Assembly: GCA_041697335.1 (NCBI GenBank)
Contig: JBGUGD010000002.1
Coordinates: 128,001 to 192,000 of the forward strand
Length of the DNA stretch: 64,000 nt
Direction: 5' to 3'
Source: Vampirovibrionaceae bacterium NZW_1234
GTDB lineage: Bacteria > Cyanobacteriota > Vampirovibrionia > Vampirovibrionales > JAGQHJ01
Shown here: one piece after another, positions 30,052 through 49,834 of the stretch
Layout: the number at the start of each line of letters is the position of its first letter
Position numbering within the stretch: the first letter of the stretch is position 1
Translations under genes and position numbers: made by a program
Notes under the pieces: generated by a model
What the model was told of the DNA's origin: nothing
The model's database searches: none
Seen by the model: the letters and a program-made list of their open reading frames with translations, nothing else

Positions 30052-31581
30052 TTATACGGCAGCTTGCTCCCGATCTCGAGGATTTGGACGGTCCGCCTGA
30101 GCCACAAAGGCTCCGGAATGACAAGCGGTCATAAACAACTTTGCAGAGTGGAAGTCGGCCATATAGGTATTAAAGTAAGCTTTGAGCTGATCTTCGGTCA
30201 GATTGACGGGGCGTTGTCCGCCTCGACCATCCGGGACGTTTCCGATATGGACGTACCCTCGGAGGGCGCCTTGACGATGAGCCTCTTGCTGCGGTAATCC
30301 GGCTTCGACCCCATCGGTACTCCCATGCCCTAACACGGCGACTAAGGCTTCTGCACCGGGATTTCGAGATGAAAACTCCCGCATTCTTTGGAAAGCCTGC
30401 TGCATGGCTTCTGGCGTGCAATTTTCAACGACTTCAATATTGTCATCGGTAACCCCGTAGCGATCCTTGGTCATTTGTACTAGGCGTTGCCGATGATCTT
30501 GTAAAACGGCACCGTCACTATGGGGATCTCTGCTGGAGGTGGGGCCAATGAAGACGAGCACTCGCCGAGGGCGTCTCTCTCGCTGGTCCCACCCTTGGGT
30601 TCCCTGGCTCGACTGGACCGGGTGTTCGCAGGGCTGATGCCCCATTAAGGGTCTGGCAATAGTGCCTTGGCTTGCGGCACGATGTGCTTCATCGATGGTA
30701 TTGCAACGTCCGAGGGCATCCAGGAACATGGTCATACGATCCTGATTGCGTTCGGCTTGAACGTAGGTGACCTGGTCCTGGCCTGAGCTGGCTAAGACTT
30801 GGGTATTCCGAGGCCAACGATTTGTTAATCTGGAATCTTGTGTGTCCAGCTGGGTACGTTGTCCAACAAGCCCATATCGGCGCTGCAAAGAACCCATTGT
30901 GCTAATATTTGCCTGCTCTGATTGACGTGCGTCTTGAAGTGCTTCTGCTGCTTTGTTTCTGAATAGACCAATTCCCCAACGGAACAGGCCAGCCAACGGT
31001 TTTAGTAAGAGTGGTGGATTTTTCCACCAGTTTAAACGATTGTCCCACTTATTAAAGCGCTGTTCACAACTGCGCCGATGTTCACGCAATTGGGGGTATT
31101 CACTTCGAACACGGATTATTTCTTGATTCAGCCGTGCCGATTCCTGAACGAAGACATTTTCTGAGGTGTTGGCTTGCCGACCTTCCAGTTCTGCAAGATA
31201 GGCTTGATCAAAGTCACGATTGGCGAGTTGTGATTGTTGCATCGCTAAATCTGATGTCTGGCGCTGCTCAATGATTCTTTGAGCCAATGACGGGTTGTGG
31301 CTGAGTCGGGCTCGTATTTGCTCGGGTGAATAATAACGTGAAAAATCCAGTATGCTTTCTCCCGGAGCCAGACGCATTTGACCAGCTTCAATAGAGCGGA
31401 TGATGTCCTCATTCAGTCGGTTATAGCGGCTGGACCAATTTTGTTGGTTTTGAGCCAGATAACGTTCAATGGCATCCACGCGGGGGCCTACATCGCTTAC
31501 GGATCTGAGAGGATTCCCAAACGATGGATAGGGTTGCGATACTCGGCTGTGAAAGCTTGGATTAACCGTTCCCACACTCAT
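30052..31581 (-). CDS. helical N-terminal region fused to a circularly permuted caspase-like (clan CD) peptidase domain
   Basis: ALVAVLGHG (His) and LFMTACHSG (Cys) near the C-terminus; p10-like QVLASSGQDQVTY..FLDAL..TIDEAH..HQP lies upstream of RRVLVFIG. Confidence 0.7.
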   Translation of the reverse strand: MSVGTVNPSFHSRVSQPYPSFGNPLRSVSDVGPRVDAIERYLAQNQQNWSSRYNRLNEDIIRSIEAGQMRLAPGESILDFSRYYSPEQIRARLSHNPSLAQRIIEQRQTSDLAMQQSQLANRDFDQAYLAELEGRQANTSENVFVQESARLNQEIIRVRSEYPQLREHRRSCEQRFNKWDNRLNWWKNPPLLLKPLAGLFRWGIGLFRNKAAEALQDARQSEQANISTMGSLQRRYGLVGQRTQLDTQDSRLTNRWPRNTQVLASSGQDQVTYVQAERNQDRMTMFLDALGRCNTIDEAHRAASQGTIARPLMGHQPCEHPVQSSQGTQGWDQRERRPRRVLVFIGPTSSRDPHSDGAVLQDHRQRLVQMTKDRYGVTDDNIEVVENCTPEAMQQAFQRMREFSSRNPGAEALVAVLGHGSTDGVEAGLPQQEAHRQGALRGYVHIGNVPDGRGGQRPVNLTEDQLKAYFNTYMADFHSAKLFMTACHSGAFVAQADRPNPRDREQAAV

Positions 31582-33582: not shown

Positions 33583-35745
33583 TTGTGTGTTGGAGTCGTG
33601 GGAAAAAGAGACCAGTTGACTTTTTTACGGGCGCAACGTCGACGAACACCTGTGTTATGGGCGTTACTTTTGGTATTTTTGGTCGCGCTGCCTTGGGTAA
33701 TTGAGGGGTTGGATAGTATTGAATTGCATCACTTCGAAGACCGCCAGCGTCAGATCCTTGAGAATCGTTATAATAGCGGGATTGTGTTAGTTGAAGTGGA
33801 TAATGTATCTCAAAATGACCAGACGATTCGCTCGCTCTTTGGACGTTACCCTTGGCGTCGTGAGATTTATGCTTATCTTTTGCGGTTTTCCCAACGGGCA
33901 CAGAGTAAAGCCGTTTTAATGGAGGCGTCCTTTACCGGCGGGGCTGATATTGATCATCCTGAGTCGGATCAGGCCTTTATTGATGCGATCTCTCCTAAGG
34001 TACCCGTGATTACCAGTTTAAGTGAAGCCAGCAAGGTTGATTTGGCGCCGTTCGAATCCGCCTCGGAGCGAGAAGCTATGTTTGAAGCACTGTCTCGTGA
34101 ATGGCGTAACATTGAAGGGCCACCCATTGTTGATGTGCATTTTTATGATGCATTTGAGGTCCCCTTTGAGAGAATTGTGCGTTCTCCCGCGTATTTTTAC
34201 CCATTGGATGATTTGGTTTTTGATGCCAATGGGAAGGTCCGTCAGGTCGTTTTGTTCGGGCGCGGTAAGATTCGCAATGGAATTCCAACTTGGCCGGTTG
34301 CCCCCTTTGTATTGAATCCATCAGCCAAAGTGGTGACGACACCGCAAGGTGAGCTGATTTTAGGGACGCATAAGGTTCATTTGCGAGGTGAAGCAAATCC
34401 TATTATTAATTGGTACGGCAATGTCTCCAAGTCGGGCCAAAAAATTTATCCGAGATACTCACTTTCGCACGTCGTGAAATCCCAGATGGCATGGGAATGC
34501 CGTCAAAATCCTAAGCTGTCTGTCTGTCATCGCTTTGATTATAAGAATACGCCGTTGTTGGATCCGGTGATCTTTCATCAACGCTATGTGCTGGTGGGGT
34601 ATAACTCCAGCTGGTTCGATTCACATACATACTCTACGCTATATGACCGGGAGAACCATTCTCAAAAATATCCAAACTTGTTTATTCAGGCCAATATCCT
34701 GGACAACTTGATCCATGACGATTTCATTGGCCGTCCTGGTTGGCGGATTCCAATTCCTTGGGGCCAAGGGAAATCCGTATCTCTCGTTACCGGATTGATT
34801 TGCTTTCTCCTATTTGTCTCTACTTATATTTTGGCCAATCGCATTCGCTCCGTATTATTCAGTTTATTTTGGGTTATTGTTTTGGGCGGCGTTTATAGCT
34901 GGTTGACTGTGTTTGCCTATCATCACTGGAATTTGTGGTTGAATTGGGCCTACCCTATTGCTTCCATGGGTGTGACTTATGTGAGTACATACCTGTATCG
35001 CTTTACCCAGGCCGAAAAGCGCAAGCACCAGTTACGCATGGCCTTTGCTAAGTACATGTCTCCCACCTCAATGGCCTATATCGAGAAGCATATGGATAGT
35101 ACACAGCTTCGCAGCCAGAAGCGCCAACTCACGTATCTTTTTTGCGATATTCGCGGTTTTACCACCTTTGCCGAGCAAAATCCTCCGGCTCGGGTTCAGG
35201 CGGTTCTGACAGAATACTTCACCCAGATGAATGCCGTCATTTTGCATGACTATCGGGGCGTGATTAACAAACTGATTGGAGATGCGATTCTGGCTTATTG
35301 GGGTTTTCCGATTGAAAGCAAGAATGATGCTGTGATGGCGGTCTCTGCGGCATTAGAGATGAAGGCCCTGAATCAGGCCTGGTTGGATGATCCGACCAAA
35401 CCGCCGCTTCGGATTGGTATAGGCATTAATACGGGTGAAGGTATGGTCGGGGATATCGGTTCTCAGGATTTTATGGATTTCACCGTCATTGGTGACAGTG
35501 TCAATACGGCAGCCCGCCTTGAAAAACTAAACAAGACCTTTGGTACGACCATCATTATTTCCAAGGCAACGTATGATTTGGTTAAGGATCATATTGAAGC
35601 CCGTTATTTAGGAACGGTTGAGCTTCCTGGCAAGTCTCAGCGTGTGGAGGTATACGAACCCTTAACGCTAAAAGCTCCCATACCGACGAAGGTGGGGAAA
35701 ACGGTCTTAGTCGGAAACCCGTCGACGGCTGACTCGTTTCATTGA
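33583..35745 (+). CDS. CHASE2-domain class III adenylate/guanylate cyclase; start uncertain
   Basis: YPWRR CHASE2 motif and three TMs; FCDIRGFT, KLIGDA, GIGINTG, VIGDSVNTAARLE. Confidence 0.93.
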   Translation: MCVGVVGKRDQLTFLRAQRRRTPVLWALLLVFLVALPWVIEGLDSIELHHFEDRQRQILENRYNSGIVLVEVDNVSQNDQTIRSLFGRYPWRREIYAYLLRFSQRAQSKAVLMEASFTGGADIDHPESDQAFIDAISPKVPVITSLSEASKVDLAPFESASEREAMFEALSREWRNIEGPPIVDVHFYDAFEVPFERIVRSPAYFYPLDDLVFDANGKVRQVVLFGRGKIRNGIPTWPVAPFVLNPSAKVVTTPQGELILGTHKVHLRGEANPIINWYGNVSKSGQKIYPRYSLSHVVKSQMAWECRQNPKLSVCHRFDYKNTPLLDPVIFHQRYVLVGYNSSWFDSHTYSTLYDRENHSQKYPNLFIQANILDNLIHDDFIGRPGWRIPIPWGQGKSVSLVTGLICFLLFVSTYILANRIRSVLFSLFWVIVLGGVYSWLTVFAYHHWNLWLNWAYPIASMGVTYVSTYLYRFTQAEKRKHQLRMAFAKYMSPTSMAYIEKHMDSTQLRSQKRQLTYLFCDIRGFTTFAEQNPPARVQAVLTEYFTQMNAVILHDYRGVINKLIGDAILAYWGFPIESKNDAVMAVSAALEMKALNQAWLDDPTKPPLRIGIGINTGEGMVGDIGSQDFMDFTVIGDSVNTAARLEKLNKTFGTTIIISKATYDLVKDHIEARYLGTVELPGKSQRVEVYEPLTLKAPIPTKVGKTVLVGNPSTADSFH

Positions 35746-35987
35746 TTTTTCTTGAATATTGTGACCTGTGTCATGCTTTATTTGAGGAGCAAAACTTAAT
35801 TGACGAACGCCCTTTTATTACTTGGTAATCGATAAGCCTATTTTAACAAAAGCAATAATAGGGTGTTACAAAGTAATGAAAAGGGAATGTATCACGGGTT
35901 TTATGCCCATACAGGAATATAATGGGACGTTGACTTCGTACATGGGTGTGAGGGAATAGTCGTCAGAGATTGGGAAAGGATATTTGT

Positions 35988-36935
35988 ATGGTAGCGATTG
36001 ATGGTAAAACCGGCCCGAAAGGGGCGGGTGTTGGCAACTACGGTTATAATGCCGGAGATGCATTGGTGAAGGTGCTGGACAAGTCACTCGAGGGTCCTAT
36101 CTCTAATGAGGACAAGGAGGTTATGAAGAAACTGACTGTGCGGTACAGTCCTGAAACCAAACCGACAGTGCCGGATTATGCAAACGTGTTCGGCATGACC
36201 CAGCGCTTAATGGAGCGCTTGGATAAGGATGGCGATGGGAATATTCAGCGAGGGGAAATTACCAATTTGTTGAATCGGAAGCTGTCTGGTGTAGAAGCTT
36301 TTGGCTTCGGTATTGTCGATGTTAACAATGACAAGCAAATCAGCTTTGAAGAGGCCGCAGCTACATTAATTCACCTGGATCAGAATAATAAGAATTTTGA
36401 TGGACAAATTGATGCAAAGGAAGCCACTGGGGGGATTGGCATATTTAGCGGAGCTAAGATCAAAAAGATTATGGAGTCACCAGCATTTAAGACGCAGTTG
36501 GCTGAATATAAAGAGGCAAAGAGCAAACCCTCGGTTAAAGCGGTCACTGTTAGCGATGAGAAGCCCGTCGCCAAACCTGCAGATAAACCCGCCGACAAGG
36601 CAACGGAAAAAAATGTCGATAAACCAGTGGCTAAGCCCAAAACACCAGCGACAATTACACCCATGGATCCTAAATTCATCCAATTTATGAAAGATTCGGC
36701 AGGCAAATCCAAGATTACCCTGAAAACCTTTACGGGATATGTGGATGAATGGAATAGAACTCATGCCGAGCGAGAAGGCAATGGCTGTATTACGGCTACC
36801 GGTAAAGATTTGCAGAATTTCTTTAAACAGCTTCGGAAGGGGCATAATAACTGGGGGATCGATCTTAGCATTACATCTCGAGATCTGGATTCGTTGTTGA
36901 ATAAAGCGACCCCGGAACAGCGCAAATATCGATAA
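35988..36935 (+). CDS. EF-hand calcium-binding protein, Lys-rich
   Basis: Loops DKDGDGNIQRGE, DVNNDKQISFEE and DQNNKNFDGQIDAKE; KP-rich linker. Confidence 0.8.
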   Translation: MVAIDGKTGPKGAGVGNYGYNAGDALVKVLDKSLEGPISNEDKEVMKKLTVRYSPETKPTVPDYANVFGMTQRLMERLDKDGDGNIQRGEITNLLNRKLSGVEAFGFGIVDVNNDKQISFEEAAATLIHLDQNNKNFDGQIDAKEATGGIGIFSGAKIKKIMESPAFKTQLAEYKEAKSKPSVKAVTVSDEKPVAKPADKPADKATEKNVDKPVAKPKTPATITPMDPKFIQFMKDSAGKSKITLKTFTGYVDEWNRTHAEREGNGCITATGKDLQNFFKQLRKGHNNWGIDLSITSRDLDSLLNKATPEQRKYR

Positions 36936-37110: not shown

Positions 37111-37179
37111 CATACGGTCTATTTGAAAACAATGTGGACATAGGTAATCAGTAAGGTCACACAAGGGAGTGCTGGGAAA

Positions 37180-38277
37180 ATGGTCAATCGCATGCTTTTA
37201 AATCCAAATGGTAATTTCGTCGGTGGTGCCGGCTTCGGCATGAACGCCAATTTACGCTTGAACTTGGCATTAAATGCAAGTCTTCGTTTTAATGGCAATT
37301 TTGGTACAGCCAGTTCGTTACCCATTGGTTTGGGTACCGGTTGGGGTAGCGGCACCGGTTTCGGGGTCAACCCGGGCTGGGGTAGCGGTATCGGGTTTAA
37401 TCCCAATCTGGGTATTGGCTTGGGTGGCAATGCTAGCTTCGGTATGAATCCGGGCTGGGGGCTGAACCCTGGGTTTGGAATGAATCCCGGCTGGGGCGTT
37501 AATCCCGGCTTTGGAATGAATCCCGGTTTGGCTGGTGGTGGTGCCGGCTTTGGCTGGGGTGGCGGTGCTGGAGGTTTTGGCAGCGTAGGTTTTAATCCTG
37601 GATTTGGAACCTCTGGCTTTGGTACCGGTGGTTTTGGTGTCACCATTAGCGGCAATATCAATTGGAATATGGCTGGAGGTATTGGCGGTCGTGTCAATAC
37701 GGGTGGCGGCATAGGCGGCACTGTGACCGGTGGTGGTACAGTGACGGGAGGCGGTACTGTCACAGGAACAATCCCAGCACCTCGCCCTCGTCGTCGTGAC
37801 CCCTTGGCCTTGGATATGGGCAGTGGTATCGGGGTTCAACGCACCAATAATGGCTTTGATTTAACCGGTCGTGGCAATCGTGCGGCCGAGTGGTTCCGTC
37901 CCGCAGGTGATCAGACTCCGGCCATTGTTGTTCGCCCTGATGCAGATGGTCAGGTTCGGGATGGTCGAAACCTGTTTGGAGATGCCAATGGGGATCGCAA
38001 CGGTTTTAATGCGCTGGCTCGCTATGATGATAACCGGGATGGCCGTGTGGACGCCCAAGAGGCCCTGCGTCACGGAATTGCTCTGTGGCAGGATCGCAAT
38101 GGCAATGGCCGTGTAGACGCCGGTGAAATGAGCAGCTTCGGCCAGCTTGGCGTAGCCTCTATTGATACGAATTACCGTGAGACCAATGATGAAGTTTTAC
38201 GGCAGCAAGGGCGTTTTACCCGGACTAACGGAACAACCGGCCTTGCGGCTGATGCTTGGTTGGCAAGCCGGTCTTAA
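37180..38277 (+). CDS. Gly-rich low-complexity protein with C-terminal FrpC-type self-processing (Asp-Pro) module
   Basis: D207-P208 in RRRDPLALD, followed by FD, DG..DGRNLFGD, GFNALARYDDNRDGRVD, LWQDRNGNG, LGVASID, QQGRFT..GTT..D, all in SPM order. Confidence 0.8.
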   Translation: MVNRMLLNPNGNFVGGAGFGMNANLRLNLALNASLRFNGNFGTASSLPIGLGTGWGSGTGFGVNPGWGSGIGFNPNLGIGLGGNASFGMNPGWGLNPGFGMNPGWGVNPGFGMNPGLAGGGAGFGWGGGAGGFGSVGFNPGFGTSGFGTGGFGVTISGNINWNMAGGIGGRVNTGGGIGGTVTGGGTVTGGGTVTGTIPAPRPRRRDPLALDMGSGIGVQRTNNGFDLTGRGNRAAEWFRPAGDQTPAIVVRPDADGQVRDGRNLFGDANGDRNGFNALARYDDNRDGRVDAQEALRHGIALWQDRNGNGRVDAGEMSSFGQLGVASIDTNYRETNDEVLRQQGRFTRTNGTTGLAADAWLASRS

Positions 38278-48094: not shown

Positions 48095-48910
48095 TTAAGG
48101 GGTGGTATGGATGTCTTCAATTTGAATGGGCTTTTTGGGGTCTCTGAGAGTACTGGTGTCGAAAAACTGCTCGTTCATTGCGCCCGAAAAGCAGTTTTCA
48201 AAGATGCACACCGTATGATCGAATGCCTGGGAAGCATCCACAATCGGCTTAAAGACATCCTGTTCATGGACCAAGTGACTTTTCCGCCATCCCATCCGCT
48301 CCTCCTTGTTCCGATTTTGGAAGAGGAGAACGCTTTCCATATTGGGATCGGTATTTGGCATTTGAGGCGTATTTGCTTCATTGCTACTGGTGCACACATT
48401 TTGAGGCTTTTTGATACTCGAACGCAGGACTGTTCCATGCATGGTGGAATCTACAATTAAATGATCTCCCTCTTCTGTTTTGCCTCGTGTTTTGGCATCT
48501 GATAGATGCTTTTCAAATTCCTCGAAGGTATCGGCGGTTTTCACCTCGTATCCTAGCCCTTCATAGCGTTCGGTTTTTTCTTCGAGGCCTTTTTCAAACA
48601 TTGCCTTCTCGCTCGCATCATTGGGTTGACCGGCGACCAGGATGGCCGTGCCTTTGTTTTTACGATTTGGATTTGCAACCGTGTCAGGCAGAGGAGCCCC
48701 GTAGCTCTGCGGTGTTTGTGGGCTCTCAATCAACGACTCCGGAAACCCCTTTTGTTGAATGTCTTCATGGGCCTGTTTTAAGCTATGCCCATTCCGAATA
48801 CGTTCTGTTAGTGCACCGGAATAAACACCGCCGTGTTCATAATCCCCATGGGAGATTTGGTTAGGCTGGCTGGCAGTGAGAATCGAAATGCGGGGTGTGA
48901 CTTTATCCAT
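48095..48910 (-). CDS. circularly permuted caspase-like (clan CD) peptidase, tandem copy B
   Basis: N-terminal ISILTAS..GGVYSGAL..QTPQSYG, then TAILVAG..GYEV..GDHLIVDSTMHG..VCIFENCFSG. GAGGAG RBS before MDKVTP. Confidence 0.75.
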   Translation of the reverse strand: MDKVTPRISILTASQPNQISHGDYEHGGVYSGALTERIRNGHSLKQAHEDIQQKGFPESLIESPQTPQSYGAPLPDTVANPNRKNKGTAILVAGQPNDASEKAMFEKGLEEKTERYEGLGYEVKTADTFEEFEKHLSDAKTRGKTEEGDHLIVDSTMHGTVLRSSIKKPQNVCTSSNEANTPQMPNTDPNMESVLLFQNRNKEERMGWRKSHLVHEQDVFKPIVDASQAFDHTVCIFENCFSGAMNEQFFDTSTLRDPKKPIQIEDIHTTP

Positions 48911-49015
48911 AGCAATGCTCCTCTTGTATATTCCGTGGAAACGAACTAATAGAAACATCACTTTGATAATACTAATAGAAGAAAGCCGTTTGGTGGCATA
49001 TTTAGAAGAGTAATC

Positions 49016-49834
49016 TTACGGGCTCCTGTAAATATCGTCGTATTTGATGGGAGGTGTCGGCTGATTGGTTTCGGATTGCAGAAACTGATCGTTGAGAGCG
49101 CCCGAATAGCAACTGTCAAAAATACAAACGGTATGATCGAAAGATTCAGCTGCATCGACGATGGGTTTAAAGACATCCCGCTCATGTACAAGATTGCTAT
49201 CCTTTAATCCAAACTGTCTTGTCTCGTCTGGGTTTCTGAAAAGCAGGACCCCTTCCTGATTGGGATTTGGTGAGGGTGGTCTGGTAGCGGACGGTGATGT
49301 ACCGCTGATACTGGAGTTCAGCACGCTGCCATGCATGGAGGCATCTACAATCAGGTGATCGTTCTCTTCGGTGGCACCCCGGGCTTTTGCATCTGACAGG
49401 TGTTTCTTGAATTCGTCAAACGTTTCTGCTGTTTTGACTTGATATCCCAGACTTTCGTAAAGAGTGGTTTTTGTTTTGACATCGTTTAGAAATTTATCTT
49501 TATCCGCTGCGTGTTTGGTTTGGCCGGTGACTACAATGGCAGTGCCTTTGTTTTTGCTACTTGGGTTTGCGACTTCGTTAGGAACGGGTAAGCCATAGCT
49601 TTGGGGGCGCTGGTTGAGCGTTTCGTCGGGTTTGATTCCCTGCAAGCCACTTTGTACCAACTCCTGGTGGGCTTGTTTCAGGGGGTGTCCGTTTTGAATG
49701 CGTTCTGCCAGGGCTTGTGAATAAAGCCCGCCGTTGCCGTCACTGCGGTGATTTGCGACGCGATGTGGTTCACTGGCAGTCAGCACGGAAATTTTGGGAA
49801 ACGTTGGTTCCACAGCCAAATCCCTTTTAGTCAA
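49016..49834 (-). CDS. circularly permuted caspase-like (clan CD) peptidase, tandem copy A; alternative GTG start at 49813
   Basis: ISVLTAS..GGLYSQAL..QRPQSYG, then TAIVVTG..GYQV..DHLIVDASMHG..VCIFDSCYSG. Confidence 0.75.
   Translation of the reverse strand: MTKRDLAVEPTFPKISVLTASEPHRVANHRSDGNGGLYSQALAERIQNGHPLKQAHQELVQSGLQGIKPDETLNQRPQSYGLPVPNEVANPSSKNKGTAIVVTGQTKHAADKDKFLNDVKTKTTLYESLGYQVKTAETFDEFKKHLSDAKARGATEENDHLIVDASMHGSVLNSSISGTSPSATRPPSPNPNQEGVLLFRNPDETRQFGLKDSNLVHERDVFKPIVDAAESFDHTVCIFDSCYSGALNDQFLQSETNQPTPPIKYDDIYRSP

Follow-up and report, generated by a model that had tools for sequence, protein, structure and literature searches.

Results

A glycine-rich protein without lysine or cysteine is encoded next to purA

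The window, a 64,000-nucleotide stretch of the genome of Vampirovibrionaceae bacterium NZW_1234 (assembly GCA_041697335.1, contig JBGUGD010000002.1, positions 128,001 to 192,000 of the forward strand), carries at 37180..38277 (+) an ORF for a 365-aa protein, in which a Gly-rich low-complexity region is followed by a C-terminal self-processing module (SPM), and a Shine-Dalgarno-like AAGGGAG, recognized from the sequence, lies at 37163..37169 (+), 10 nt 5′ of the ATG. A sequence-only reading of this DNA had described the product as devoid of Lys and Cys, with low complexity and no Asp or Glu over residues 1-206 and with D207 as the first acidic residue; the residue counts agree (Lys 0, Cys 0), and the GAC codon of D207 begins at nt 37798 within RRRD-PLALD. 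Residues 1-207 (37180..37800, +), the putative released fragment, are rich in G, N, F and W, and D, E, K, C, H, Y and Q are all absent before D207. The composition of residues 1-206 is G68 N24 F15 T14 L13 P13 A11 V10 S9 R8 I8 M7 W6, Gly thus making up about one third. Repeat scanning and motif counting located an 18-bp tandem array of 5.4 copies at 37436..37531 (+), which encodes G(M/V/L)NPG(W/F) hexapeptides (five exact units in the ORF), and two TVTGGG repeats followed by a Pro/Arg linker at 37713..37757 (+). A single-sequence model of the full-length protein was uninformative (pLDDT 34), the N-terminal fragment showing no confident fold.

Contigs from two metagenome runs cover the Asp-Pro site with identical letters (X1, 37781-38173, a run that may itself be the source sample of the assembly; X9, 37687-37837), and therefore an assembly error at this site is unlikely. 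No strain variants were seen in the matching metagenome contigs, and a promoter and terminator scan gave nothing exceeding shuffled sequences. On the minus strand, the ORFs at 37119-37763 and 37318-37839 were dismissed as shadow ORFs of the Gly repeats.

Upstream, at 35970..36935 (+) and separated by 244 nt, lies the gene of a 321-aa EF-hand protein with a Lys/Pro/Ala-rich linker and 12.4% Lys, which places it in the top 0.4% of ORFs; it matches the XopAW model weakly (30 bits against a cut-off of 120). On the other side lies a convergent purA, the product of which is 54-60% identical to those of Cyanobacteria, Gastranaerophilales, Vampirovibrionales and Melainabacteria, with closer relatives up to 80%. 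Past purA no synteny was found in three family genomes; the EF-hand gene has weak matches in two of four family genomes, and no SPM gene was seen within the 3-kb loci of those matches. The metagenome runs that match the window are labelled hot-spring or microbial-mat, and no RNA run was listed among the matching ones. Elsewhere in the window, a tandem paralogue pair (48095-48961 and 49016-49834, both minus strand) and a third ORF (30052-31581, minus strand) share His-Gly and Cys-x-Ser-Gly motifs reminiscent of caspase-like peptidases, and 33583-35745 (minus strand) encodes a 720-aa membrane protein that may be a CHASE2-type adenylate/guanylate cyclase.

The C-terminal domain is assigned to the FrpC-type SPM family

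In a phmmer comparison, residues 208-365 (37801..38274, +) align end to end with the FrpC SPM (6sjw; E 1.8e-14, identity about 33%). PF26745 is present in all 120 homologues among the matches listed, and the Atlas, at a score of 0.85 that serves as a lead only, labels this family as SPM. The Pfam profile search of the protein itself returned no SPM match, just EF-hands under the cut-off. A model of the domain built from a 70-row alignment reached pLDDT 89.9, and Foldseek placed it at TM 0.75 to 6sjx and 0.71 to 6sjw, the sole two matches at E ≤ 0.001. On sequence and modelled fold, residues 208-365 belong to the FrpC-type SPM family (PF26745), as first proposed from the letters, and the match extends over the full module. 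The family is large, with 14,022 representatives at E ≤ 0.001, and the identity of this SPM to any match is at best 47%.

The scissile site and port are retained and two Ca2+ sites are degenerate

The FrpC SPM is described as a cooperatively folding module with four Ca2+ sites, a Trp pair, a narrow port and a fifth, transient Ca2+ site formed by D414, D478 and D579 (PMC7078468). For comparison, 420 distinct SPM domains were gathered from the proteins and loci collected, and aligned. In the alignment the candidate scissile bond, within R204-R-R-D207-P208 (37789..37803, +), corresponds to FrpC D414-P415, and W238, L265, G267, D268, G275, W303 and D358 correspond to FrpC W451, L475, G477, D478, G491, W519 and D579 (FrpC numbering as in PMC7078468); F266 is also kept.

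Two of the four Ca2+ sites, the EF-like loops 283-294 (38026..38061, +; FrpC D499-D511) and 305-316 (38092..38127, +; FrpC D521-E532), align as intact. The site at 212-217 (DMGSGI, 37813..37830, +; FrpC D419/D421/D423) had already been called degenerate from the sequence, and indeed the first Asp alone is left, such a loss of two of the three acidic ligands recurring in 4 of 128 Asp-Pro domains. The EF-like loop 252-264 (37933..37971, +) is degenerate too, with R252 in place of FrpC D462, N264 in place of E474 and R260 in place of D470. The column of R252 holds Asp in 99% of Asp-Pro homologues and that of N264 holds Glu in 95%; both equivalents are lost together in 0 of the 128 other Asp-Pro domains and in 5 of 419 domains overall, none of these Asp-Pro. 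R252, R260 and R263 may stand in for a lost Ca2+.

The port signature occurs in 98 of 128 Asp-Pro domains and also in 86 of 257 non-Asp domains, and is therefore weak evidence on its own. Arg-Arg right before the site was counted in 48 of 130 Asp-Pro modules versus 0 of 251 others, kin among these not being independent, and this lead-in would speak against decay of the module. The residues named as blocking before Asp-Pro are D, G and P, Arg not being among those listed in the available text, which also reports that a short SPM cleaves more slowly (PMC7846742); the 365-aa protein stops near FrpC 586. Judged from the sequence, Ca2+-triggered cleavage at D207-P208 is predicted as somewhat more likely than not, and it would expose the predicted neo-N-terminus PLALDMGSGIGVQR.

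Because sequence and fold both bear out the SPM homology, and neither the scissile site nor the port is damaged, Ca2+-triggered clip-and-link is taken as the leading reading of the protein. The worn loops bear on another reading, wherein the module no longer cleaves, or is decaying, and binds Ca2+ as the terminal cap or assembly domain of an exported low-complexity protein, the Asp-Pro being a leftover of a cleaving ancestor. We regard this as possible though doubtful: the equivalents of the near-invariant D462 and E474 are gone together with two first-loop ligands, whereas the Asp-Pro, the Arg-Arg and every port residue survive in a module that elsewhere has diverged so far that no match exceeds 47% identity.

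Relatives of the module within and beyond the family

Five other SPM-like domains were found in this genome (G000), all Ser-Pro, five Thr-Pro ones in family genome G001 and three weak Ser-Pro ones in G004, while none were found in G002 (56% complete) and G003, so that the 365-aa protein is the sole Asp-Pro member among the 14 SPM-like domains found in the family. That 13 of 13 others are Ser/Thr-Pro counts against clip-and-link, as do the short C-terminus and the presence of two degenerate Ca2+ sites in a module reported to fold cooperatively (PMC7078468). Four of the five G000 paralogues likewise carry the SPM at the C-terminus behind a low-complexity N-terminus, a point for a non-cleaving cap. 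So is the wider distribution: the residue before Pro is not Asp in 257 of 385 domains scored (query excluded), and therefore the SPM fold appears to be used widely without the cleavage chemistry. No paper was found on the role of this majority form (257 of the 420 domains).

In a quick tree built on 46 selected rows, with the lead-in motif trimmed, the domain fell among stand-alone Asp-Pro modules (SH-aLRT 87), apart from its own Ser-Pro paralogue and on a long branch (1.38), and in a quick tree of 106 rows its placement was not resolved. Grouping with RTX-type modules bearing RR-DP was not rejected by an AU test (p 0.27), and the two quick trees disagree on an origin by transfer. The long branch fits a module released from cleavage; Asp-Pro has nevertheless been kept along it, which suggests selection.

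When residues 1-260 were searched against 8000 candidates with lengths of 200-639 aa, nothing matched at 1e-5, the genome contigs yielded no orthologue, and the 29 loci from metagenome contigs were all generic SPMs or short EF-like matches. SPM matches were present in 6 of 41 related genomes, none with the Gly-rich N-terminus at the loci examined. That these collections gave no orthologue is a further point against clip-and-link. Among 123 Asp-Pro protein matches the module is C-terminal in 66, and 64 of these lack GGxGxD, a count in which some entries may be partial and to which one search limited to 200-639 aa contributed in favour of small forms. Small non-RTX SPM proteins thus seem to be common in databases, whereas the structural paper (PMC7078468) describes the SPM as "exclusively present" in RTX proteins of large size.

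Two further kinds of SPM-fold protein were observed. A divergent Ser-Pro form lies at the protein end in G000:C29:192792-195677 and in the G004 loci L050, L052 and L054, all four with an N-terminus that, by motif, we take to be pilin-like. Giant adhesin-like proteins (P0122-P0269, L018, L019, L023-L030) carry at least two SPM-fold domains with Ser, Ala, Thr or Pro before the Pro, often near the C-terminus.

Lysine absence exceeds chance and is not specific to the SPM

Set against the proteome, zero Lys is far beyond chance, with 0.11 ORFs of at least 150 aa expected at the genome Lys content of 4.8%, but 24 of 2545 such ORFs (crude ORF set) are Lys-free, as are 8 of 1454 of at least 300 aa. 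The others include an RTX-repeat protein, repeat proteins rich in Asn/Ala and numerous low-complexity proteins made up of G/P/F/N/Q, and none is among the SPM matches of the genome. Lys-free SPM domains are no more frequent with Asp-Pro (9 of 131, query included) than with Ser-Pro (11 of 108; Fisher p 0.48), and a Lys-free N-fragment occurs in 5 of 66 C-terminal Asp-Pro matches, one of them just 8 residues long. Therefore, the absence of Lys is beyond chance, yet neither required by nor specific to the SPM. The earlier suggestion that it avoids self-ligation is accordingly not established, the Lys-free class being mostly without SPM, the Asp-Pro domains showing no enrichment, and the fragment's own alpha-amine being able to react with the SPM anhydride (PMC7846742). 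One point may favour that idea: where the query domain has 0 Lys, each of the 10 paralogue domains counted in the family has 5-12. The missing Tyr is a further favourable point, also for clip-and-link: among 23 comparable Gly-rich stretches that are free of Lys and have at least 15 aromatics, Tyr is absent from just 1, repeats making the Lys-free and Tyr-free counts non-independent. GC bias was discarded as a cause (GC3 0.47 versus 0.48-0.57 in neighbours), and Lys auxotrophy is not supported, lysA, one gene of the pathway, being present over the cut-off.

The reactivity of alpha-amines also opens a route by which the N-terminal amine would join the D207 anhydride head to tail, giving Gly-rich rings or polymers from which a matrix or adhesive pad could be made. 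Residues 1-206 hold no D, E or K, as this route would favour, but uncharged Gly-rich stretches of 170-430 aa are found in many SPM-less proteins of the genome and hydrolysis would compete, and we consider it highly improbable.

The Lys-free ORFs are a class in their own right (e.g. G000 C37:85725-87194, C26:43180-44379, C8:7624-13996, C28:52853-55240 and C34:142344-143135), mostly of low-complexity G/P/N/F/Q or Asn/Ala repeats with no evident signal peptide. The RTX-repeat protein (G000:C8:175564-177738) has 708 aa and no Lys, and runs past the contig end.

Possible export routes

The sequence-only reading had seen neither RTX nonapeptides nor a Sec signal; the GGxGxD count in the ORF is zero and, by inspection alone, no Sec-type hydrophobic stretch is present. 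No export signal was identified on the 365-aa protein. The genome encodes a type I cassette on contig C16 (HlyD over the cut-off, with C39-ABC and TolC matches), unlinked to the ORF, and two FlhA/SctV-family type III export sets, the second with its own ATPase and FliH-, FliF- and rod-like genes; this equipment speaks for clip-and-link. The genome, which is 95% complete, yielded no member of the VirB4 family.

The second type III set lies at G000:C32:9387-20950 (L149:7388-18951) and comprises an FlhA/SctV-like gene under both cut-offs, a FliI/SctN ATPase, FliH-, FliF- and FlgF/G-like genes and a lytic transglycosylase, the flagellar FlhA being on C2. Of 21 genomes in the order, 20 have two FHIPEP genes (19 of 20 relatives), the exception being 56% complete, and no literature on the second set of this order was found by title.

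Discussion

Based on the homology, the fold and the site residues seen here, from which we infer export, cleavage, ligation and target, we propose that the 365-aa protein may be an exported, Ca2+-activated clip-and-link protein that couples its Gly-rich chain to another protein, a reading from sequence and model that we hold at somewhat short of an even chance. First, the protein would stay unfolded in the low-Ca2+ cytosol and leave the cell without a Sec signal, presumably by a type I or type III route. Outside, the C-terminal SPM would fold on the D207/D268/D358 site together with the two EF-like loops left intact, with Arg salt bridges possibly replacing Ca2+ at the worn loop. Upon folding, the D207-P208 bond would break, and the 207-residue Gly/Asn/aromatic chain would depart with an Asp anhydride, which could couple to an amine on another protein, either in the surface or matrix of the cell itself or on a prey or neighbour cell. 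The Lys-rich upstream protein is a tempting acceptor, noticed post hoc and a candidate only.

The cleavage step could also be sufficient in itself, releasing or maturing the Gly-rich chain, which would then self-assemble or be delivered, with the anhydride mostly hydrolysed and linking without a role. The anhydride reacts quickly with water and efficient ligation needs a docked target (PMC12538545, PMC7846742), the fragment is without a folded binding domain, and type III-secreted MIIA proteins are reported to autocleave upon Ca2+ (PMC6506597). Against this stand the fragment's lack of side chains able to quench the anhydride and, post hoc, the unusually Lys-rich gene directly upstream, and we think such a clip-only function unlikely.

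Among known systems, the protein most resembles the FrpC SPM of Neisseria meningitidis (6sjw/6sjx), with which it shares the fold, the D-PLALD start, the Trp pair, the port, the D478/D579 equivalents and two EF-like loops; FrpA and ApxIVA are related SPM proteins. Unlike the FrpC and ApxIVA RTX exoproteins, it has 365 rather than >1000 aa, a C-terminal SPM and no GGxGxD repeats, and unlike FrpC it has two degenerate Ca2+ sites, a low-complexity N-fragment, a Melainabacteria-like environmental host and, as far as seen beside its gene, no FrpD-like lipoprotein. By analogy, it most likely works as FrpC does, though not an RTX protein. The nearest relatives by identity (40-47%) are stand-alone C-terminal Asp-Pro SPM proteins (P0002 and P0008, Pseudomonas sp.; P0153, P0167), which likewise have 250-600 aa with the SPM at the very end and no GGxGxD, but differ in their acidic N-termini, mostly present Lys and intact Ca2+ loops. 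The Ser/Thr-Pro paralogues (G000, G001) share the fold, the mostly C-terminal position, the low-complexity N-termini and the lack of an evident signal peptide, but differ in their Lys content and, because Asp is missing before Pro, would not perform the anhydride chemistry. The MIIA domains form a separate family, in which the classical Ca2+ motif is absent. Their autocleavage site is Asp-Pro. The likeness to MIIA of NopE1 and VIC_001052 lies in the mode of working, that is, disorder, Sec-signal-free secretion and Ca2+-induced folding with autocleavage (PMC6506597).

The active SPM homologues tested, as far as the cited papers' available text tells, come from Neisseriaceae and Actinobacillus. 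In a literature judged mostly from titles and abstract openings, with few subscription journals, we found neither a non-RTX SPM protein nor an SPM of this lineage described. Pfam already marks small non-RTX SPM proteins; what appears new from the sequence is a small Asp-Pro SPM protein that lacks both RTX repeats and Lys and in which two Ca2+ sites are eroded. Going further, a hot-spring Melainabacterium could here possess a minimal "protein glue" that is RTX-independent and nucleophile-free. An SPM with two Ca2+ sites, Arg replacing the lost ligands, would staple an anhydride-armed Gly-rich chain to partners rich in Lys, the upstream protein for instance, or to itself head to tail. It would thereby cross-link the Lys-free low-complexity proteins of the genome into an attachment pad or a matrix, and the protein would represent a large group of small clip-and-link proteins outside the RTX class that has been overlooked; this extended picture we put forward as speculative and improbable as a whole.

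Because no Lys is available for side reaction, the Lys-free SPM of a hot-spring mat organism could serve as a NeissLock-type reagent. The attachment pad of V. chlorellavorus, described as "of unknown composition" (PMC4451040), may offer a testable context. If the module is dead, the protein would be one more orphan of low complexity that ends in an SPM-fold cap. If it is active, it would reveal which SPM Ca2+ sites are dispensable, and natural anhydride cross-linking would be extended to the building of environmental surfaces and matrices.
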